NCBI GenBank assembly: GCA_964512235.1
Contig: CAZEGD010000001.1
Coordinates: forward strand, 42,874 to 106,873
Direction: 5' to 3'
Source: an uncultured archaeon
Lineage (GTDB): Archaea > Aenigmatarchaeota > Aenigmatarchaeia > CG10238-14 > SCSR01
DNA: 64,000 nucleotides
Below, in pieces: positions 10,379 to 45,274 of the stretch (position 1 is its first letter; each line of letters starts with the position of its first letter). Made by a program: the position numbers and the translations under genes. The notes under the pieces were generated by a model, which saw only the letters and a program-made list of their open reading frames with translations, made no database searches and was not told the DNA's origin.

Positions 10379-10466
10379 GGGCCGGTAGCTTAGTTTGGTT
10401 GGAGCACTCGGCTGATAATCAAAATCAGATACCGAGCGGTCGCCGGTTCAAATCCGGCTCGGCCCA
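10379..10466 (+). tRNA. tRNA-Ile (anticodon GAU) with a 13-nt intron at 37/38
   Basis: Acceptor GGGCCGG/TCGGCCC. Anticodon stem CTCGG/CCGAG. Loop CTGATA + intron ATCAAAATCAGAT (10418-10430) + A. Intron UCAG pairs with CUGA (32-35), followed by the bulge AU|A. Confidence 0.85.
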
Positions 10467-10512
10467 CTCCAACGAAAAGATTAAAAATAGAGAGACTAAT
10501 GAAATATATTGG

Positions 10513-13497: not shown

Positions 13498-14763
13498 TTA
13501 ATTTGCTTTTAATAGAATTCTTTTACCAGTGACATCATTTAGCAAATTTTGCAATTCTTTCAATTTTTCTTCTTTATCTTTTTGTAACCTTTTTCTTCTC
13601 TCTCCAATCATTTCATTCTCAATCTTAGTTTCTTCCATTCTTCTCTTTAGCTCATTAATCTCATTTTCCAATTTATTCTTTCTCTTTGGAACTTCCTGCA
13701 ATTCTATCCTTTCTTCTTGTCTTTCCAATTCCTCTGAAAGCCCTGAATATTCCTCAAGGATTTTTCCCATGGTATTGTCCTCTATCATCCTTTCAATAAC
13801 AGCCAAGAATTTGCCGCTATCCTTCAAATTCATCTTCCCCTCAATTATATTTGTTTTCATACCTTTGATGGCAGACATGAAAACTTCTCCCTTAGGATCT
13901 TTAGATAAAATGGATTCAAAGGAATGTTGTGCATAATCATCCAAAATTCTATTTTTAACAGACCATTTGTATTTCCTCAGGGGCTTTTCCACTTTTGCGA
14001 GAGATTGTATAAAGTCAGACTTTTTATTCTGCAGATTCATTTTCATTTCTTCTTTAATCCTCCGCATCTCTAAGAATGCCTTCCATTCATTGCCATCGAG
14101 TAATTTTTTCAACTCATCTTCAATTTTCTTATTCCTATCCTCCATTTCTTTCATTGTCTTCTCCAATTCCTTTGTTTCATCCTTCTTCAGCTCTTCTGTT
14201 AATCTTAATACTTCATTAGCAACCTCTTGCGTCCTTAGCAATTGCACGTTGGACTCTGCAAATTCTTTTACTATATTCCCCAGTCTCTTGTCTATTTCGA
14301 CTATCTGGCGGAAGCTCTCTATTACTTTATCTGCTTCCTTTTCGAACAATTCCTTCAAAAATGCATACTCTCTCACTGTTTTTGCGTTTATGATATTGAG
14401 TAATTTGGCAGTTTCATTATGGAAATTTAGGATAGAAGTCATGTCTTCTCCCATCGGTTTTTGTATTTGCTTGACCAGACTTTTCATCTTATTCGCAAAA
14501 CTCTTTCTGCTTCCCACAGCTTTTCTTATAAGCATGCGATCGTTTATTGTGGAATATGGAGCTTGTCCAAGAATTTCCAGTTGGTCTTGCATAGTATTGG
14601 CAGCCATCTGTAAGTTTGCATATTCCCTTTCAGCTGACTCTTTTAGAGGCTTGAAATCCTTTTTCATCTTCTCTGCTAGGAACCCTTCTACTTCTTTCAG
14701 CTGCATCTTCTCTTCTTCAAACTTTTCTTCTCTTTTTCCAAAAATTCTGTCTAACCAACCCAA
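13498..14763 (-). CDS. Long K/E-rich coiled-coil protein (421 aa)
   Basis: Heptad-like charged sequence throughout (e.g. EELERQEERIELQEVPKRKNKLENEINELKRRMEETKIENE). No enzymatic motif seen. Confidence 0.55.
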   Translation of the reverse strand: MGWLDRIFGKREEKFEEEKMQLKEVEGFLAEKMKKDFKPLKESAEREYANLQMAANTMQDQLEILGQAPYSTINDRMLIRKAVGSRKSFANKMKSLVKQIQKPMGEDMTSILNFHNETAKLLNIINAKTVREYAFLKELFEKEADKVIESFRQIVEIDKRLGNIVKEFAESNVQLLRTQEVANEVLRLTEELKKDETKELEKTMKEMEDRNKKIEDELKKLLDGNEWKAFLEMRRIKEEMKMNLQNKKSDFIQSLAKVEKPLRKYKWSVKNRILDDYAQHSFESILSKDPKGEVFMSAIKGMKTNIIEGKMNLKDSGKFLAVIERMIEDNTMGKILEEYSGLSEELERQEERIELQEVPKRKNKLENEINELKRRMEETKIENEMIGERRKRLQKDKEEKLKELQNLLNDVTGKRILLKAN

Positions 14764-14828
14764 TCCAATCAGAATTATGTAAGGTTATATAAAATAAAAG
14801 TTTATGTGTTCTGGAATGCTGTGTTGCA

Positions 14829-14852
14829 GGTTCAAATCCCACCTCCCACATT
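14829..14852 (+). repeat. Partial copy of the tRNA-Leu 3' end (T loop to acceptor end)
   Basis: ggttcaaatcccacctccc is identical to 12822-12840. One mismatch follows (a for g), then catt. Confidence 0.85.
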
Positions 14853-14932
14853 GTTTACAGCTGTAAATAAGAGTCCAATATTGCGGAAGGTAAGTTTGCT
14901 TTAAGATTCAAATTCAACTAATTAATAAGAAA

Positions 14933-15529
14933 TTAATTTCTAAAATTATATTTTTTTAAAAGTTCAGTATTTATACCTTCAATTAATAACTTTTCTTCCT
15001 CTGAAATTTCTCCTAATCTACCGATTTCAAAACTTAAAACAACTTTATTACCAACATATCTTTTAGGATGGTCAACAAATAAACTATAATATGAGAAAGA
15101 CGATGGAGAAGGCCAACTTAGTTGTTCATTTCTCGTCCTACAACTCAAAGTTACAAAAACATTTCCTCTATGCATTATAGCTTTAGCAATTTCTTCTGGA
15201 TTTTCTGTTTTAGCAGCCACATTTTTTATTTCAAAATTTACTTTTTCAAGATACTCTACAATTTCAAATAATTCATCTCGAAAATCTTTTTCTAATTCTT
15301 TTTGAACAGTTAATGCTGGAGTTGGCATACCTCTTGGACCAGGTGCATAAAGAACTCCGTCTTCAAATTTTATTAATTTCTCTGGTTCACCTTTTCCTCT
15401 TACATTAAAGCGTCCATACTGGAGAATGTCTGCAGAAAAATACCCAGATTTTCTACCTTCATATAAGATTTTAGGATATTCAACATGGCTTTGACCAGTA
15501 GTTAGTAAAGTACTTGTTTCTGCACCCAT
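14933..15529 (-). CDS. Hypothetical protein (198 aa) in a very AT-rich cassette
   Basis: ORF only. My hand count for 14941-15000 is 10 G+C of 60. Confidence 0.45.
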   Translation of the reverse strand: MGAETSTLLTTGQSHVEYPKILYEGRKSGYFSADILQYGRFNVRGKGEPEKLIKFEDGVLYAPGPRGMPTPALTVQKELEKDFRDELFEIVEYLEKVNFEIKNVAAKTENPEEIAKAIMHRGNVFVTLSCRTRNEQLSWPSPSSFSYYSLFVDHPKRYVGNKVVLSFEIGRLGEISEEEKLLIEGINTELLKKYNFRN

Positions 15530-15652
15530 ATTATCAAATTAATAAAGAACAGTTAAAGATTTATATATTTCCTCTAAGACCCCTTAGAGAAATCTTAAAT
15601 CTTTTCAAAACAATATAACAAAAAAGACGCACCGTACTTTTTGTTCTGTGCT

Positions 15653-15665
15653 CACCTCCCGCATT
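15653..15665 (+). repeat. Second partial copy of the tRNA-Leu 3' end
   Basis: cacctcccgcatt is identical to 12833-12845. The following gttt is shared with the flank of the 14829 copy. Confidence 0.7.
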
Positions 15666-15718
15666 GTTTTTTAGTTCTACATCAAGTTCAAGGTGGGCAT
15701 CCTAAAGAAAGTATCCTA

Positions 15719-16120
15719 TTATCCTTTCAATAGTATTTCCAACTTCATCCTTCTAAGCATCCTAGACCTTTTACCGGAGAAGATGTACAGTTCCTTTCCA
15801 TCATCAATTTCATAGAATCTGGTATTAGAGTAGTTCCCTATCACATGGTTCTGAGGATTATACTGGTTAAGGACCCTTTTGATTTTTTTGACTTCCTCGG
15901 GATACCTTGTTTTTTCTGAACCGAATCTAGGAAATGATACCTGATTTGTAGTGACGAGCAACTGAAAAGTGTACAAAAAATCTTCATCTGTAAAAGCCTT
16001 AAAAACTGAACTATCCCTGAAATCGGAATAACTTACCTCTAGATAATGTTTGTCCAGCTCATAGATTATTAGCCCCTTCAGGTCGAATATTTTATCTCCC
16101 ATATACGAGAATTCTTTCAA
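15719..16120 (-). CDS. Hypothetical protein (133 aa)
   Basis: ORF only. Confidence 0.4.
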   Translation of the reverse strand: MKEFSYMGDKIFDLKGLIIYELDKHYLEVSYSDFRDSSVFKAFTDEDFLYTFQLLVTTNQVSFPRFGSEKTRYPEEVKKIKRVLNQYNPQNHVIGNYSNTRFYEIDDGKELYIFSGKRSRMLRRMKLEILLKG

Positions 16121-16156
16121 TTAAATCTTAAATATGTAACATCCCTCGTAATATCT

Positions 16157-16882
16157 ATGCTGACCCAAGAAGAGTTGAATAAATCCTATATGAGGAGCGG
16201 TATATCCTCTGCTAAGATTTATGCACATATATGGGAATCTTTCTCAAGAGATAATGGAAAGACAAAACCAAGAGGATATTTGAGCCTATCACCTTCGATA
16301 GAGAGTTACGTTTTAGCGCAAGTTGGACATCTGAATAAGAAATTAGAGTGGAGTTCTATTGGTAAGGAAATCATGTCATTCTTCAAATGTTATCCATATT
16401 CTCCAGAGAATGTTCTAAGTTTGGGCTGTGGTATTGGCAATGGTTTAAAGACTGTGAAAAAATATGGAAGTAAACTACTTGTGGGAATTGACGTGGGTCT
16501 TCCGGTATTAAAATTGGCCAAGTCAAACTTGCCAGACGGAGATTTTGTATGTGCATCCTCCACTCATTTACCTTTTAGAGATTCAGTTTTCGACACGTTT
16601 ATAACTGGACATTTTTTTGAACCTATGACCAATCGGGAATCCAGATTTACATTTGAGGAAATCAAAAGATGCTCCATAAAAAATTGTCTATGGTTTGTTT
16701 CAGTCGAAGGGGAAGAGATTTTTGAAAGTTATCATATACAAAAATTCGGTAAGGGTGGGTGGGGTGTTATTCACAAACATCCATATATAAGCAAAGTTTC
16801 CCCAGTACCGGGTTCGGATTATAGACTGTGTGGTGCCGAATTTTTAGTCTTAAAGTCATTATACAGTGGTAATGATGAATGA
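16157..16882 (+). CDS. Class I SAM-dependent methyltransferase
   Basis: Motif I-like LSLGCGIGNG. Then GIDVGLPVLKLAK, then LPFRDSVFDTF (Methyltransf_11-like layout). Confidence 0.6.
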   Translation: MLTQEELNKSYMRSGISSAKIYAHIWESFSRDNGKTKPRGYLSLSPSIESYVLAQVGHLNKKLEWSSIGKEIMSFFKCYPYSPENVLSLGCGIGNGLKTVKKYGSKLLVGIDVGLPVLKLAKSNLPDGDFVCASSTHLPFRDSVFDTFITGHFFEPMTNRESRFTFEEIKRCSIKNCLWFVSVEGEEIFESYHIQKFGKGGWGVIHKHPYISKVSPVPGSDYRLCGAEFLVLKSLYSGNDE

Positions 16883-39464: not shown

Positions 39465-40589
39465 ATGGTGTTCACAACATTAGAAGATGGGAGGATAAAA
39501 TACCAAGGGAATAAGTTATTTCCACCTATCGATGATATAAAAAGTAGAAATTTAGCCGTAGAACATATAGAAAATAGAATACATAGTATAAAAACCAATC
39601 AAATGTGGGAAAAAATAACTCTTATAAATGACATTATCTTCAAATCTACAGTTGACTTTTTCTCTTCTATAGGAGCAAAATTCATTCCTTTACCACTTAC
39701 AACAAAAATGATATCTTCTCCGGGAGCTGTTTATGGAAAGAAAAAAATCAATTATACAACTGATACAAAACCAATAAAGTTAAAATGGTTCAATTTATCT
39801 GAACCTGTCTTTCTGTCAGAATCTTCACAAATATACCTAGAACTTGTTCTTCTACAAAATAATATCGACCATGTTTTTTCTATTTATAACTCTTTTAGGA
39901 AAGAAGAAGCAGATACTACTCACCTATCGGAGTTTCATCATATAGAATACGAAGGACACGTCACACAGGAAAAAAACTTGGAAACGATAGAAAGTCTTGT
40001 GAAAACTATTTTAAAAAATATTCTAAAGAAAAAATATCTTTTAGAGTTTTTCCTAGAAGAAGGGGATATAAGAAATTTGGAAATCCTTGCAAAGGATCAC
40101 TTTATCCAAATAAAATTTAAAGACGTTCTAAGAATGTTATACGAGGAGACAAAAGATGAAAAATACAAGAAATTTACAACTAAGTATTTTGGATTTTGGG
40201 AAGAAGTTAAGATCACAGAAATATTGGGTAATAAAATAGTAGTTATCAAAGAGTTTCCATTATTAGAAACGGCGTTCTACCATGCACCAAAAGTTGTTGA
40301 TGGAGTACAAGTTGCAAACAATGCTGATATAATATGGCCTAGTTATAAGGAATTTGTAGGAAGTGGACAACGTGTAGGAACACTAAAAGAACTGATGAAA
40401 AAAGCAAAATTTTTCACTCTACCAAAAAAAGATTATGAACCATATTTACAATCCAGAAGATACGATGACTATAAAATAAGTTCTGGATTTGGAATGGGCT
40501 GGGAAAGATTATTACAAGGTTTACTTAAAATGCCTACCATAATATCAGTTTGTCACTTTCCAAGAATCCACGATAAAATGATACCCTAA
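39465..40589 (+). CDS. AsnRS/AspRS-like class IIb catalytic core without anticodon-binding domain (AsnA-like)
   Basis: Motif 1 region GAKFIPLPLTT. LSESSQIYLEL. Motif 2 VFSIYNSFRKEEADTTHLSEFHHIEYE. EFVGSGQRVGTLKEL...YEPYLQSRRYDDYKISSGFGMGWERLL parallels the AsnRS pattern GEIIGGSQRE...YWWYLDLRRYG..PHSGFGLGFERL. No OB-fold N-domain. Confidence 0.7.
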   Translation: MVFTTLEDGRIKYQGNKLFPPIDDIKSRNLAVEHIENRIHSIKTNQMWEKITLINDIIFKSTVDFFSSIGAKFIPLPLTTKMISSPGAVYGKKKINYTTDTKPIKLKWFNLSEPVFLSESSQIYLELVLLQNNIDHVFSIYNSFRKEEADTTHLSEFHHIEYEGHVTQEKNLETIESLVKTILKNILKKKYLLEFFLEEGDIRNLEILAKDHFIQIKFKDVLRMLYEETKDEKYKKFTTKYFGFWEEVKITEILGNKIVVIKEFPLLETAFYHAPKVVDGVQVANNADIIWPSYKEFVGSGQRVGTLKELMKKAKFFTLPKKDYEPYLQSRRYDDYKISSGFGMGWERLLQGLLKMPTIISVCHFPRIHDKMIP

Positions 40590-40643: not shown

Positions 40644-41684
40644 ATGAAATTGATTAAACCACCTTCATTGCAAAAAGGGGATAGTATAGCTATAGTAGCT
40701 CCCTCTTCTGGTTTAGCTGCTTTATTTCCTCATCGTTTGGAAAGAGCTGTAAAGTTTTTGGAAAAAATTGGTTATAAAATAAAGGTTTTTCCGACAGCTC
40801 GCTCTATAAAGAAATGGAGTTCGGGGAGTCCTAAGGAAAGGGCATGCGATATAAACAATGCATTTGAAGACAATGAGGTTAAAGCTATAATATGTTCCAT
40901 AGGAGGTATAGTCGCGAATCAGACACTCAAATACATTAATTTTGATATTATAAGGAAGAAGCCAAAAATATTTTGCGGGTACTCGGATATCTCAGTTCTA
41001 CATTATGCGTTTCATACAGTCGCCGGTTTAGTCACGTTCTACGGTCCTTGTGCAATGACCCAATTTGGTGAATATCCTGAACCATTAAAATATACAGTAA
41101 ACCACTTTGAAATGGCTGTAGGGAATAACAAACCTATCGGTAGAATAAACCCCTCTGAAAAATGGACAGATGAAGTGTTGGATTGGGCTAACAAGTTAGA
41201 TATTGAAAGACCAAGAGGGCTAAAGACTAACTCAGGATTTCAATGGTTACGTGAGGGTAAGGTTTCTGGCCGTGTAATGGGGGGGTGTATATCTTCTATT
41301 GTACATCTCCGTGGAACCAAATTCTGGCCGAATCAAAAAGACCGAATATTTTTTATAGAAATTTCAGAGGGTCAAGAGTCTTCTAGTGGTGAACCACTCT
41401 CATACGTGGATTCATATCTGACAAATCTTGAAATTTCAGGTGTCTTTCAAGATATAAATGGTCTTATAGTAGGTAGACCCTTCAGGTACACCAATGAAGA
41501 TACAGAGGAATTAAAAAGGATAATTTTAGAACAAACAAAAGAGTACGATTTCCCAATTTTATTTGGTGCGGACATTGGTCATACGGATCCAATGATAACA
41601 ATACCACTAGGAACTAAAGTAGAGTTAGATTCGAACTCTAATAGCTTTGTTTTTCTAGAATCTGGAACATCAAACAACCTTTGA
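40644..41684 (+). CDS. S66-family LD-carboxypeptidase / MccF-like serine peptidase
   Basis: GDSIAIVAPSS. Nucleophile elbow FCGYSDISVLH. C-terminal FGADIGHTDPMITIPLG (Ser-His-Glu family layout). Confidence 0.8.
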   Translation: MKLIKPPSLQKGDSIAIVAPSSGLAALFPHRLERAVKFLEKIGYKIKVFPTARSIKKWSSGSPKERACDINNAFEDNEVKAIICSIGGIVANQTLKYINFDIIRKKPKIFCGYSDISVLHYAFHTVAGLVTFYGPCAMTQFGEYPEPLKYTVNHFEMAVGNNKPIGRINPSEKWTDEVLDWANKLDIERPRGLKTNSGFQWLREGKVSGRVMGGCISSIVHLRGTKFWPNQKDRIFFIEISEGQESSSGEPLSYVDSYLTNLEISGVFQDINGLIVGRPFRYTNEDTEELKRIILEQTKEYDFPILFGADIGHTDPMITIPLGTKVELDSNSNSFVFLESGTSNNL

Positions 41685-41733: not shown

Positions 41734-42864
41734 ATGAGAGTTTCGAGTCTAATTGGACACAAAATAAAAACGAGGAAGAAGTTTGATGATCTTGCAGAGC
41801 TTTTGACCAGCAGTTTTTTAGTAGAAACCTCTTTTTTCGACAACGATGGCTACAAAGGCCTTATAAAATTATCCATTGAAAAGTCTGTAGAGAATAATCT
41901 AGAAGCGTTGTTGAAAGAGCTAATGCAGAGAAGTGGAATACAACCAATTGAGTTGCCTACACTTCAACCTTATAATATTTTTGAGACTACTGATAGGATA
42001 GAAAAGTTTGGTAGAGAATTTGTGTCCACTACAGACGATAGGGTAGTTTTTCCCACATCAGAAGAACCCATAATCAACTATCTGGGCCGATTTGCAAACT
42101 TGTCATACAGAGAATTACCGATGTTAGTTTACCAATTTAAAAACTTCTTCAGGGCAACAACTCCGAAAGCCCTTATACGTCTACAAGAGTTTAAAGTACT
42201 TGATATATACAGCTTGAATGAAACTGAGGACTCCCTGAGAGAAACAATAAAAACAATAATAGAACCGATGTTTTTCCAACTGTGGGAAAGGCTAAACCTC
42301 AAAACAATACAACTGAAGAAAGATGAAAACTACATAGACATAAAAGTAAAGACAGCAGAAGGAAATGATACGATACCTAAAACTGGCGAAAGATGTCTAG
42401 GAATTGGCGTAATAATGAACCTTGGCAACAACTATTCAAAAAAATTTGGATTGGGGGTTGCCGATTCTTCTAATAACCTAGTGTATCCGTATCTTGGATC
42501 CTACGCTATAGGGATAGAACGGTTGATTTATGCTATGGTAGACCAAGGAAGAACAAAATCAAAAGGGGTCAACACTATTAAATGGCCTGAAGGAATCGAA
42601 CCTGTAACTTATTATGTTATAAAAATAGGAGAAAGCAATTATGGTGAAAAAATATATAAAGAACTTATTTCTAGAAATAAAAGAGTTCTATTGGATGATA
42701 GTAAAGACACTTTAGGAACAAAATTCGCACGGGCCTATGCCATAGGAGCACCATACATCATTAGTGCTGGCCCAAAAGAAGAGTCTAGAAAGATTGTAGG
42801 TATTGAAGAAAGTTACACAGGTGAGAGATGGGAAATAGAGTTTGATAAACTATTGTGCATGTGA
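41734..42864 (+). CDS. Divergent ProRS-like class IIa paralogue (motif 2 degenerate)
   Basis: LPTLQP, FPTSEEPI, SYRELPMLVYQFKNFFRATTPKALIRLQEFKVLDIYSL (compare YQF..KYRDE..R.GLFRTKEFLMKDAYSF in the next gene), GSYAIGIERL, and a HGTP-type anticodon-binding domain YYVIKIGES...LLDDSKDTLGTKFARAYAIGAPYIISAGPKE. Confidence 0.6.
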   Translation: MRVSSLIGHKIKTRKKFDDLAELLTSSFLVETSFFDNDGYKGLIKLSIEKSVENNLEALLKELMQRSGIQPIELPTLQPYNIFETTDRIEKFGREFVSTTDDRVVFPTSEEPIINYLGRFANLSYRELPMLVYQFKNFFRATTPKALIRLQEFKVLDIYSLNETEDSLRETIKTIIEPMFFQLWERLNLKTIQLKKDENYIDIKVKTAEGNDTIPKTGERCLGIGVIMNLGNNYSKKFGLGVADSSNNLVYPYLGSYAIGIERLIYAMVDQGRTKSKGVNTIKWPEGIEPVTYYVIKIGESNYGEKIYKELISRNKRVLLDDSKDTLGTKFARAYAIGAPYIISAGPKEESRKIVGIEESYTGERWEIEFDKLLCM

Positions 42865-42869
42865 ATACT

Positions 42870-44132
42870 ATGAGAAGGTCACAACTTTTTACACCAACAG
42901 GCAAAGCCGATGAGAGAGAAATGCTTAGTCGAAGTCTGGAATTAAGTTTGAGGGGTGGCTTTGTTCGCCAGACAGGTTCTGGCCTTTATAGTTATACACC
43001 CACAGGTGTCAGGGTTCTTTATAATATATCATCTCTTGTCAGAAAGGAAATGAATAATATTAATGCACAGGAAGTACTTCTTCCATCCTTACAGCCAGCA
43101 GAGTTGTGGAAGGAGAGCGGTAGATGGGAAGTATACAAAGGTAGTATATTTACTATCCAAGATAGCCAAAACAAGAAGTATTGTCTAGCCCCAACATGCG
43201 AAGAAGCCATGGTAGATCTTGTGAGGGGTAATGTCAGATCATATAAGAACTTGCCACTAACCTTATATCAGTTCAGCCAGAAGTATAGGGATGAAAAGGT
43301 AAGACAGGGTCTCTTCAGAACAAAAGAATTCTTAATGAAAGATGCTTATAGCTTCCATTTTAGTGAGGATGACCTCGATAAGACGTATCAGAAGATGAGG
43401 CAGGCATATACTAACATCTTTGAAGAACTAGAACTGGATTTCTTCTTATCTTCAGCCGAGACTGGTGAGATGGGAGGGAAAAGGTCTGAAGAACTTATTG
43501 CCTTGACGGATGTTGGAACAGACAAGTTCGTTGTTTGTTCACAGAAGGAATGTCATTTTGGAAGCCCCATAGATAGTGGTATAAAAGAGTGTTCTATCTG
43601 TGGTAGAGACTTGCAACTGAAAACAGGTATTGAATTAGCTCACTTGTTCAAGTTGGGAGACCGATACAGTAAACAAATGGATCTAACCTTCGCTGACAGA
43701 GATGGTTCGATAAGATATATGGAAATGGGTTGTTATGGGATAGGGATTAGCAGACTAATCCCAACAATAATAGAACAGAACAATGACGAAAAAGGTATAA
43801 TATGGCCAGAAAATGTGGCTCCATTTAAAGAAGTTATTATTCCTACAAGCCAAAAGAAGTCAAATCTCGCTAGACTCTCTAATCAGTTATACTATGAGCT
43901 GAACGAAAAAAGATTAGATCCGTTGTTGGACGATAGAGATGTTTCAGCTGGCACAAAATTTGCTGAATCTGATTTGATGGGGATTCCAAGAAAAATAATT
44001 ATAGGTCCTAAATCCTTGGCCAAAGGTAAGATAGAGGTGGAGCATCGTAGAGGCGGTAAAGATTTTTTAGAAATTGAAAATTTCGTTGCAGAATATATAA
44101 AAAAGTATTATTTAGGACATACAACTGCCTAA
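42870..44132 (+). CDS. proS: Prolyl-tRNA synthetase, bacterial-type architecture without INS editing domain
   Basis: MRRSQLFTPTGK...GSGLYSYTPTGVRVL...LLPSLQPAELWKESGRWEVY...LAPTCEEAM...SYKNLPLTLYQFSQKYRDEKVRQGLFRTKEFLMKDAYSF...MGCYGIGISRL...DDRDVSAGTKFAESDLMGIPRKIIIGPK. The track start 42855 is a GTG 5 codons upstream. Confidence 0.75.
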   Translation: MRRSQLFTPTGKADEREMLSRSLELSLRGGFVRQTGSGLYSYTPTGVRVLYNISSLVRKEMNNINAQEVLLPSLQPAELWKESGRWEVYKGSIFTIQDSQNKKYCLAPTCEEAMVDLVRGNVRSYKNLPLTLYQFSQKYRDEKVRQGLFRTKEFLMKDAYSFHFSEDDLDKTYQKMRQAYTNIFEELELDFFLSSAETGEMGGKRSEELIALTDVGTDKFVVCSQKECHFGSPIDSGIKECSICGRDLQLKTGIELAHLFKLGDRYSKQMDLTFADRDGSIRYMEMGCYGIGISRLIPTIIEQNNDEKGIIWPENVAPFKEVIIPTSQKKSNLARLSNQLYYELNEKRLDPLLDDRDVSAGTKFAESDLMGIPRKIIIGPKSLAKGKIEVEHRRGGKDFLEIENFVAEYIKKYYLGHTTA

Positions 44133-44188: not shown

Positions 44189-45013
44189 ATGATAAATATG
44201 TCAAGAGAAATCACACCAGCTAGTATAAAGGACATGTCCTATATAGATTTTATGGCTTTTCTCAATGAGACCAACAAACCGCCAGGAGGAAAGAAATCAC
44301 TAATAGATGTAGCTCAACTATGCTTCTTGAATAAGGACAAGAAAGTTCTTCATGTAGGTTGTAGTACTGGATATTCGACCTTTGAACTTAACCGATTAAC
44401 AGGTTGTAAAATAGTAGGGATAGACATCAGTTCCAACATGATTAAAAGAGCCAATGAGAAAAGAGAGAAAGATATGAATAGAACCAATGTAACATTTCGA
44501 GTTGCCGATGCCACAAAATTTCCTTTCGAGGACAATACATTCGATGTTGTGTTTTCGGCGGGTGCTACAGCTTTCTTTGAGGACATACAAAAAGGAGTAG
44601 CTGAATGCAAACGTGTTGTTAAACCATGGGGCTTCATGGTCGATGTAAACTTCTATTATAAGAAAGACCCACCGCAGAGTTTGATAGATGAATTGAATAA
44701 GACTATGGATATCCACATAAAAAAACGGAGTAAGGAAGATTGGATAAGAATATACGAAGATGCCGACCTGGATGTTTATTATATTAAAGATGGAAAAACA
44801 AAAACTGTTACGAAAGAGCAAATAGAAGAATACGCAGAAAAAACCGCTAGGAGAGTGACCTCTGGTTCAGAAATCATAAAAACGATAAAGGAAAAACTGA
44901 TACCCATAATGGAGCTTTTCAATAGAAACAATGAGTACTTAGCATACTCGATATTCATCTTTCGCAAGCACCCTGACGAAGAGCCTAAAGATATCTACTT
45001 GTTTGAACCTTAA
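44189..45013 (+). CDS. Class I SAM-dependent methyltransferase
   Basis: Motif I VLHVGCSTGYST. GIDISSNMIKRANEK. FDVVFSAGA. Confidence 0.7.
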   Translation: MINMSREITPASIKDMSYIDFMAFLNETNKPPGGKKSLIDVAQLCFLNKDKKVLHVGCSTGYSTFELNRLTGCKIVGIDISSNMIKRANEKREKDMNRTNVTFRVADATKFPFEDNTFDVVFSAGATAFFEDIQKGVAECKRVVKPWGFMVDVNFYYKKDPPQSLIDELNKTMDIHIKKRSKEDWIRIYEDADLDVYYIKDGKTKTVTKEQIEEYAEKTARRVTSGSEIIKTIKEKLIPIMELFNRNNEYLAYSIFIFRKHPDEEPKDIYLFEP

Positions 45014-45132
45014 CCAAATATTTTTCAAGAATACAATTAGTTCAACGCCTACTCAACATTCTATTTCCAATTTTCAAAAAATTGAGCTAGATGCTGATTT
45101 GACAGCAAAAACTAAAGAATTGAAAAATTCTA

Positions 45133-45215
45133 CGCCGAGGGTGGGATTTGAACCCACATGGGCAAAGCCCGCTGGTTTTCAAGACCAGTGCACCACCTGG
45201 TTATGCGACCTCGGC
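45133..45215 (-). tRNA. tRNA-Ser (anticodon UGA), type II
   Basis: Acceptor GCCGAGG/CCTCGGC, discriminator G. Anticodon stem CTGGT/ACCAG, loop CTTGAAA. Long variable arm CGGGCTTTGCCCAT. T arm GTGGG-TTCAAAT-CCCAC. Confidence 0.9.
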
Positions 45216-45274
45216 ATACCTAAAGAATAATTCATAGAAATAAGATATAAAAGTACTCTCCCAATCCAATGAGC

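Follow-up and report, generated by a model that had tools for sequence, protein, structure and literature searches.

Tandem prolyl-tRNA synthetase-like genes in an archaeal gene cassette that encodes homologues of microcin C enzymes

The closest described relatives of the locus reported here are the microcin C (McC) gene cluster, mccABCDEF, and the McC-like clusters of bacteria. We analyzed a 64-kb stretch of DNA from an archaeon (the window; statements below that something is absent from the window refer to these 64 kb). We found two adjacent genes in it that are both related to prolyl-tRNA synthetase (ProRS). The downstream gene encodes a ProRS of bacterial type that is missing the INS editing domain, and the upstream gene encodes a ProRS-like paralogue with a remodelled ATP/Mg2+ site. 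The pair is part of a five-gene cassette that has, in common with the McC clusters, a homologue of MccD and an S66 peptidase assigned to the MccF clade. Related loci have additional McC-like features: HIT proteins (MccH-like), S51 peptidases (MccG-like), a pyridoxal phosphate (PLP)-dependent decarboxylase (MccE1-like) and an Mtn-family nucleosidase. In addition, the chemistry of the cassette, like that of McC, appears to be centered on asparagine. In contrast to the McC clusters, the cassette has no MccA precursor, no ThiF-like MccB and no MccC exporter, and a class II enzyme similar to asparaginyl-tRNA synthetase (AsnRS) occupies the nucleotide-coupling position. The extra modules of the cassette are aminoacyl-tRNA synthetases or proteins that resemble them, and its hosts are archaea of the DPANN group, bacteria of the candidate phyla radiation (CPR) and some haloarchaea, not typical bacteria.

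Two other kinds of known systems bear on the pair. Some small-molecule gene clusters contain a second aminoacyl-tRNA synthetase that serves in self-resistance or in supplying aminoacyl-tRNA, as with the leucyl-tRNA synthetase (LeuRS) AgnB2 and the seryl-tRNA synthetases AbmK and VlmL, the latter two being dedicated synthetases in their gene clusters. Unlike these, the extra synthetases of the window type are editing-less and are translationally coupled to a pseudo-synthetase. Cyclodipeptide synthases are derived from aminoacyl-tRNA synthetases, have lost ATP binding, and use aminoacyl-tRNA. The logic that we propose for the paralogue is the same: a synthetase fold in which the residues for ATP activation are lost and the amino-acid pocket and tRNA binding are retained. 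However, cyclodipeptide synthases, which produce diketopiperazines, are derived from class I enzymes (class Ic; TyrRS/TrpRS) and are without an anticodon-binding domain, whereas the activity of the paralogue is only predicted. To our knowledge, there is no class II example of the cyclodipeptide-synthase principle.

The downstream gene of the pair (positions 42870-44132, + strand) encodes 420 amino acids, counted from an ATG at 42870. We favor this start because orthologues begin with MRRS or MKRS. It leaves a 5-nt spacer after the paralogue; a GTG at 42855 would instead give a 10-nt overlap. Both open reading frames, their strand and this spacing agree with a previous annotation made from the DNA letters alone (the sequence-only reading). 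The protein aligns to a bacterial ProRS (PDB 5znj) from residue 1 (E = 1e-99) and scores 473 bits against TIGR00409, above the cut-off of 306.7; that is, it is of bacterial type from its first residues, as had been claimed. The alignment to 5znj is split into two blocks, residues 1-228 to 1-227 and 251-412 to 402-562, and skips residues 228-401 of the solved enzyme. Thus, the INS editing domain of approximately 175 amino acids is absent. The score against NF006625 (495 bits) falls below the cut-off of 558 because INS is missing.

In place of INS there is a 23-residue segment, CSQKECHFGSPIDSGIKECSICG (amino acids 223-245; 43536-43604, + strand), with the cysteine spacing C-x4-C-x12-C-x2-C. The sequence-only reading had pointed to this Cys-containing segment, and we found that its four cysteines are kept in 7/7 members of the ProRS clade. 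In an AlphaFold2 model (pLDDT 88) the segment forms short hairpins (pLDDT about 85). It is probably a zinc knuckle and would bind zinc. The class II motifs 1, 2 and 3 and the T.E proline pocket, that is, all of the catalytic motifs, are intact (LLPSLQP, PTCEE, YRDE..GLFRTKEF, GCYGIGISRL). The loop of motif 2 falls one residue short of the usual length (YRDE-KVRQG; clade pattern E-[KST]-[VI]-R-Q-G). A reduced INS is also known from the P-type ProRS of Rhodopseudomonas palustris (PDB 2i4l), with which the window enzyme shares its catalytic core, its anticodon-binding domain and the absence of a C-terminal zinc domain. The window enzyme differs from it in having the 23-residue Cys4 knuckle in place of INS and a motif-2 loop shorter by one residue, in being encoded by an archaeon, and in being part of an accessory cassette.

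The bacterial-type ProRS is not the norm in this lineage, a possibility that the sequence-only reading had raised against its own interpretation. Judged by sequence, the host is a DPANN archaeon (Aenigmatarchaeota). The window includes a SecY/S5 ribosomal-protein gene block and genes for MetRS, phosphoenolpyruvate synthase and Cbf5, and every named relative of its SecY (61-64% identity) belongs to Candidatus Aenigmatarchaeota. Among 5.8 billion proteins, the nearest homologue of the ProRS is 59% identical, in contrast to SecY, which has relatives at 88%, 87% and 81%. Therefore, close relatives of the organism do not share the INS-less ProRS. In addition, a related locus from Woesearchaeota (L049; the labels L003 to L094 denote the related loci that we compared with the window) carries a normal archaeal-type ProRS of 485 amino acids. 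These two results together indicate that the bacterial type is not the lineage norm. We found no archaeal-type ProRS, no free-standing YbaK/INS domain and no tRNA(Pro) gene in the window.

The upstream gene (41734-42864, + strand) encodes a protein of 376 amino acids with a class IIa core and an anticodon-binding domain (Pfam tRNA-synt_2b and HGTP_anticodon). Its best sequence matches are all ProRS. The AlphaFold2 model (pLDDT 93) gave only ProRS structures among the top 50 in the PDB, the best being R. palustris ProRS (2i4l; template modeling score 0.85). GlyRS, HisRS and ThrRS are ruled out as its identity, since sequence and fold matches are all to ProRS; the sequence-only reading, which had called the gene ProRS-related and had named another class IIa synthetase as the way in which it could be wrong, was right on this point. 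The paralogue is below every ProRS cut-off (151.6 vs 558, 119.4 vs 306.7 and 79.7 vs 437 bits) and is 27% identical to the neighboring ProRS. Its remodelled motif 2, FRATTPKALIRLQEFKVLDIYSL (amino acids 139-161; 42148-42216, + strand), has lost the D-E of R-D-E, also as described previously. The motif-1 Pro (amino acid 75), T108/E110, R140, R149, F153 and R263 are retained. The ProRS motif E.GH.FKLG reads S.GV.MNLG (amino acids 223-231).

These changes recur across a family. When 1.84 billion cluster representatives (clusters at 50% identity) were scanned in full with HMMER, a close family of seven clusters emerged, six full-length members at more than 270 bits and one remnant at 215; the next match was at 175 bits. 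Mutual identity among the close paralogues is 33-50%. We compared these 7 and 19 more distant, cluster-borne paralogues (n = 26) with 28 true ProRS. The paralogues retain the motif-1 Pro, the Thr and first Glu of PT.EE (26/26), the motif-2 Arg (22/26), a loop Arg or Lys, the adenine-stacking Phe (26/26) and the motif-3 Arg (24/26, with Lys in the other two). The motif-2 Glu is absent from all 26. In E.GH.FKLG, Glu is changed to Ser in 23 and His to Val or Met in 24. There is also a gain: a Glu or Gln directly before the motif-3 Arg (GIERL / GIQRC). In class II synthetases, the Glu of motif 2 is the residue that binds adenine N6, and the catalytic Mg2+ is held in place by the strand Glu. The pattern amounts to uniform neofunctionalization of the ATP/Mg2+ site with retention of the amino-acid pocket and the tRNA-binding domain, and the paralogue is missing residues that canonical ATP/Mg2+ chemistry is expected to need. 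The sequence-only reading had called it dead. This is too strong: the motif-2 Arg, loop Arg, stacking Phe and motif-3 Arg are all still there. That the gene is a decaying pseudogene is ruled out by the selective substitutions that recur across a conserved family.

A search of GTDB species representatives gave no copy of the paralogue, and a metagenome scan gave only the window copy and that of L008. At one locus (L007:282-1647) the paralogue is reduced to its C-terminal half, from approximately residue 165, and a methyltransferase gene fills the place of the N-terminal half.

We found that the paralogue and an editing-less synthetase occur together repeatedly. The close paralogues with readable context all adjoin an INS-less ProRS, which is 405-421 amino acids long at these loci. 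The paralogue precedes the ProRS in the window, L003, L008, L014 and the L007 remnant, follows it in L015 and L018, and is convergent with it in L016. More distant pairs are present in L032, L038, L067 and L068 (4-nt gene overlap), and bacterial pairs in L088 (Saccharibacteria) and L091 (a metagenome-assembled genome labelled only 'bacterium'). Altogether, 13 loci besides the window have a ProRS-paralogue pair, usually spaced by 1-18 nt or overlapping by 4 nt. The distances among paralogues track those among the partner ProRS (Mantel r 0.62, p 0.0006). Partners have nevertheless been exchanged, since the window-type paralogues of L015 and L018 stand beside ProRS from the other INS-less clade. 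In L011, the INS-less ProRS is present alone.

The partner is not always ProRS. In at least three loci (L042:3625-5637, L083:9285-11297 and L094:9383-11389), a gene for an archaeal-type LeuRS-like enzyme of 668-670 amino acids is directly upstream of the paralogue. The two genes overlap by 4 nt in L042 and L083, and a single nucleotide separates them in L094. These LeuRS-like enzymes have HIGH and KMSKS and are missing the CP1 editing domain. The general rule is that of an editing-less synthetase, class II or class I, with a pseudo-synthetase immediately after it. The amino-acid motif of the paralogue follows the partner, PT[SN]EE with ProRS and TTPEP with LeuRS. At approximately 17 loci, the paralogue has no adjacent synthetase. 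Two of the more distant paralogues (P0135 and P0132) are in clusters without a ProRS, and their AsnRS-like, methyltransferase and S66 partners are still there. Based on these results, we consider it very likely that ProRS and paralogue form a selected, functional partnership. The LeuRS-like partners and the approximately 17 loci without a synthetase are easier to reconcile with a functional hand-off, in which the paralogue would use aminoacyl-tRNA from its partner or from the housekeeping enzyme, than with an obligate heterodimer.

Another degenerate ProRS-like gene occurs at one locus. L004:13812-15059 (- strand) is an archaeal-type ProRS-like gene that scores 214 bits against a cut-off of 437. 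Some 57 positions at the start of the model have no counterpart in it, the motif-2 Glu and loop Arg are gone, and the genes next to it encode an INS-less ProRS, an S66 peptidase and a sodium:solute symporter. This gene could encode a former housekeeping enzyme that was displaced, or else a second and independent kind of ProRS pseudo-enzyme.

The companions of the pair, which were absent from the sequence-only reading, link it to McC. The five genes of the cassette are co-directional with spacers of 5-56 nt, and their GC content at third codon positions (GC3) is 0.24-0.37, compared to a window mean of 0.44 (sd 0.07). The first gene (39465-40589, + strand) encodes the AsnRS-like protein, a class IIb catalytic core of 374 amino acids without an anticodon-binding domain (Pfam tRNA-synt_2, E = 7e-28). 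Conservation in the cassette is highest for this gene, with 50-60% identity over 80 loci. Its best NCBIfam and PDB matches are AsnRS, well under the cut-off (147 vs 414 bits). Invariant in six orthologues are motif 2 (SFRKEEAD..HLSEFHHIEYE), motif 3 (GFGMGWER), the AsnRS-type determinant Q.Y.E, and GSGQR. The protein has SSPGAVYG in place of EGGAE and a new N-terminus of 100 residues. Its identification as archaeal asparagine synthetase A (AsnA) was rejected (103 vs 389 bits; PDB 3p8t matches at only 3e-5). AsnA (3p8t) and the LysRS paralogue EpmA/PoxA are likewise class IIb cores that have no anticodon-binding domain and use a non-tRNA acceptor; the distinct N-terminus and the SSPGAVYG segment set the AsnRS-like protein apart from AsnA. 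It is our candidate for the nucleotide-coupling enzyme.

The second gene (40644-41684, + strand) encodes a serine peptidase of 346 amino acids (Pfam Peptidase_S66 and S66C) with the triad motifs GYSD, EISEG and GHTD. It matches MccF-like structures from Bacillus anthracis at 1e-64 to 1e-59, MccF at 1e-43 to 4e-46 and LdcA at 1e-9 to 1e-17. By these matches, it is a member of the MccF clade and not of the LdcA clade. The last gene (44189-45013, + strand) encodes a class I S-adenosylmethionine (SAM)-dependent transferase of 274 amino acids. Its best PDB match is MccD (5fcd; E = 4e-24), with residues 4-175 collinear with 5-176, including the N-terminus that precedes the Rossmann fold; the runner-up is at 1.6e-14. 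The group transferred is putatively carboxy-aminopropyl or methyl. A tRNA-Ser(UGA) gene (45132-45216, - strand) marks the downstream edge of the low-GC block. We use it only as a boundary marker; no att-like repeat was found around it when we looked for an integration scar. There was no relevant match to anti-phage defense families of PADLOC.

The AsnRS-like gene served to trace the cassette. An alignment of this protein, used to scan one genome per GTDB species, marked at least 90 species, of which 80 loci were kept. The carriers are chiefly DPANN archaea (Woese-, Pace-, Nano-, Micr-, Parv- and Aenigmatarchaeota) and CPR bacteria; others are haloarchaea (Natrinema, Haloarcula), Methanosarcinales and a few other bacteria. 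We counted neighbors at the 39 loci where each flank of the AsnRS-like gene extends for 5 kb or more. A methyltransferase gene was present at 33 of these and S66 at 31, and 37 had at least one of S66, HIT or S51. The ProRS-like paralogue was a neighbor at 15 loci, a true ProRS at 3 and a LeuRS-like enzyme at 4. Other recurrent neighbors are a PLP-dependent decarboxylase of the Orn/DAP type (like MccE1), an APH-type kinase, radical SAM proteins, an AsnC-type regulator and extra AsnRS-like copies; the Mtn-family nucleosidase was found in one locus. No ThiF/MccB-like family was present in the window cassette, and none recurred among neighbors over the 92 loci used to judge recurrence. There was also no sign of an MccA-like precursor: 36 of 711 short intergenic open reading frames end in Asn, with no enrichment and none conserved, and very short or unusual frames could escape this search. 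Viral carriage was limited to AsnRS-like genes of giant viruses (27-29% identity), with no viral paralogue. We found no description of this gene combination in the searchable literature, which is not proof that none exists.

The cassette has several variants. In a second type (L028, L055, L061, L059, L041, L024, L036 and L054), the AsnRS-like gene is followed by a gene for a protein of ~327 amino acids that has no Pfam or NCBIfam match. HIT is present in 6 of these 8 loci (none was seen in L036 or L054), and there is usually no S66. L036:378-4927 has four AsnRS-like genes in tandem, and other loci often have two copies; identity between an extra copy and the main one is just 24-32%. Two cultured haloarchaea, Natrinema altunense AJ2 (L023) and N. 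gari JCM 14663 (L027), have a core of methyltransferase, AsnRS-like protein and S66, with a full-length LeuRS of 948 amino acids and an ABC transporter between the core genes. A variant at 55% GC (L008:838-10954) has a methyltransferase that is CmoM-like and not MccD-like, along with two radical SAM/SPASM proteins, a HIT protein and an AsnC-type regulator. At four loci (L066, L078, L080 and L087), a protein of ~385 amino acids with a faint HisRS-like match (Pfam tRNA-synt_His, E = 6e-4) adjoins S66, and it may be a further component derived from a synthetase.

We think that the tandem pair is probably a module of a McC-like aminoacyl-nucleotide cassette. The fuller reading that we favor, with a probability of roughly 0.45, is that the pair is an accessory module of a horizontally spread cassette that makes and detoxifies a McC-like aminoacyl- or peptidyl-nucleotide without a ribosomal precursor and without MccB. 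It starts from what is observed at these loci: which genes are present, how they are conserved and co-inherited, which residues are kept or lost, and the homology to MccD and MccF. The chemistry is what we infer, namely the reaction of the AsnRS-like enzyme, the donor and acceptor used by the paralogue, and the biological role of the product. In this pathway, the AsnRS-like enzyme would activate asparagine and link it to a nucleotide, giving an isoasparaginyl or aspartamidyl species and replacing MccB. The MccD-like enzyme would then decorate the nucleotide product from SAM. Charging of tRNA(Pro) would be the task of the INS-less ProRS, as a dedicated synthetase free of editing, and the paralogue would move the prolyl group from Pro-tRNA (or Pro-AMP) onto the alpha-amino group of the Asn-derived nucleotide. 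The prolylated nucleotide would be a masked pro-toxin, a dipeptidyl 'Trojan horse', and the MccF-like S66 peptidase (HIT or S51 in the variants) would shield the producer. S66 (MccF), HIT (MccH) and S51 (MccG) are the three hydrolase families that have been shown by experiment to inactivate processed microcin C (PMC8323819; PMC9239234). MccE2 acetylates the alpha-amino group of processed McC, which abolishes toxicity (PMC8323819); modification of the same amino group by prolylation would therefore mask the toxin. The specific assignment of the paralogue to tRNA-dependent prolyl transfer is tentative, and we regard it as possible but doubtful. We are as hesitant about the broader notion that these are peptide-nucleotide Trojan-horse toxins built wholly from parts derived from tRNA synthetases, with aminoacyl-tRNA provided by an editing-free ProRS or LeuRS.

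Several points weigh against this proposal. We know of no precedent for formation of a P-N bond by a class II synthetase-like enzyme, or for a class II enzyme that carries out the transfer step assigned to the paralogue. The paralogue may still adenylate on its own, given the retained Arg and Phe and the gained Glu/Gln, and a hand-off from tRNA would then be unnecessary. A McC-type warhead hits AspRS, and this does not explain a ProRS copy as a resistance gene. With AspRS as the target, only a role in supply is left for the ProRS, and that role is weak where there is a housekeeping ProRS. If the INS-less ProRS is the only ProRS of the genome, then it is simply the housekeeping enzyme, and in L004 the bacterial-type enzyme could have become the housekeeping ProRS. 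There is no MccC-type exporter in the window cassette, related loci have only sporadic ABC or SSF transporters, and no tRNA gene accompanies the clusters (37 loci with a paralogue or ProRS). An antibiotic pathway is unexpected in the small genomes of DPANN and CPR organisms. Lastly, the product and the chemistry are predictions from sequence. An early lead, the prolyl-AMP mimic phosmidosine with its O-methyl group, was set aside; the conserved ligase is of the Asn type and the transferase is MccD-like.

Of the alternatives, the one that survives best, though we consider it unlikely, is that the paralogue pairs with the INS-less ProRS through the class II motif-1 interface and acts as a heterodimer or regulatory subunit. 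The model for this is HisZ, a class IIa synthetase paralogue that does not aminoacylate and is a partner subunit of ATP phosphoribosyltransferase. HisZ, however, has no anticodon-binding domain and partners with HisG, which is not a synthetase, whereas the paralogue retains the domain and has AsnRS-like, MccD-like and MccF-like proteins as its constant partners. Retention of motif 1 by the paralogue is as expected for a heterodimer, and so are the tight translational coupling in 12 of 13 same-strand pairs, the location of all 7 close paralogues beside an INS-less ProRS, and the correlated divergence of paralogue and partner. The heterodimer fits less well with the rest of the family: approximately 17 loci have the paralogue and no cluster ProRS, the identical 4-nt coupling is found with a class I LeuRS-like enzyme that is incapable of a class II interface, partners were swapped in L015 and L018, and the pair in L016 is convergent. 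Nor does a heterodimer explain the constant link to AsnRS-like, MccD-like and MccF-like proteins. The sequence-only reading had suggested a heterodimer or a decoy subunit. The long-lived partnership that this implied is borne out by the recurring pairs and their correlated distances; a heterodimer or decoy as the main explanation is not, given the synthetase-free loci, the LeuRS-like partners, the swaps and the constant companions.

It is also conceivable, and still less probable, that the INS-less ProRS is an inhibitor-insensitive copy and the paralogue a non-catalytic sponge, the inhibitor being the product of the cassette or an environmental mimic of prolyl-adenylate, for example one like phosmidosine. 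An extra synthetase in a cluster is a known self-resistance device (AgnB2, AbmK, and asnS/aspS of actinobacterial mcc clusters; PMC8323819). The residues of the paralogue also suit a sponge, since those that contact the adenylate are retained and the catalytic acids are lost, and the degenerate archaeal-type ProRS beside the INS-less enzyme in L004 is as expected after displacement. However, the AsnRS-like ligase and the analogies to MccD, MccF, MccH and MccG indicate an Asp/Asn warhead and not one based on Pro. A small-molecule sponge would not explain why the anticodon-binding domain is retained, and most clusters that carry the paralogue are without the extra ProRS.

We give a lower probability again to the paralogue as a trans-editing partner that hydrolyzes mischarged tRNA in place of the missing INS (ProRS) or CP1 (LeuRS-like). 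Both types of coupled synthetase are without editing domains, there is no YbaK/INS-like domain in the window, and a protein with a tRNA-binding domain and an amino-acid pocket and without activation residues would be suited to this function. But the paralogue is more often without an adjacent synthetase than with one, its ProRS-derived anticodon domain would need to read tRNA(Leu) too, and the link to AsnRS-like, MccD-like and MccF-like proteins would again be unexplained.

The least probable alternative, a housekeeping ProRS of bacterial origin with a decaying tandem duplicate and chance neighbors, accounts for the intact ProRS, its clade-specific motif-2 loop (which suggests long adaptation to archaeal tRNA(Pro)), the half paralogue of L007 and the lone ProRS of L011, but is largely refuted by the conservation pattern: full-length paralogues with the same selective substitutions over loci of 27-55% GC at 33-50% mutual identity, a neighborhood that recurs in dozens of species, and a ProRS (59%, against 88% for SecY) that close relatives do not share.

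The protein families of the cassette are singly known. What appears to be new is their combination: an AsnRS-like enzyme takes the place of MccB/MccA, a conserved pseudo-synthetase of class IIa goes together with a coupled synthetase that has no editing domain, and the distribution centers on DPANN and CPR organisms. If the McC-like proposal is correct, then microcin-C-type chemistry extends beyond bacteria and beyond ribosomal precursors and has been re-invented from tRNA-synthetase scaffolds. The paralogue would represent a novel functional class among class II synthetase paralogues and would be the first class II counterpart of the cyclodipeptide-synthase principle, and would provide a handle on how synthetases are recruited to secondary metabolism. 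It would also mean that DPANN and CPR organisms, which have minimal genomes and live attached to other cells, bear a compact weapon that targets translation together with the matching immunity genes. Such a weapon could act on the hosts or competitors of these episymbionts and would bear on host interaction. Even if the mechanism is wrong, the cassette is a well-defined and widespread gene set with four synthetase- or McC-related enzymes, all of which can be assayed.

Two observations concern other parts of the window. An open reading frame at 14933-15529 (- strand) has a GC3 of 0.12, compared to the window mean of 0.44, and its neighbors over 13498-16882 are low too; this may be another foreign segment. 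A tRNA-Ile(GAU) gene (10379-10467, + strand) was called at 89 nt, which is over the standard length and suggests an intron.

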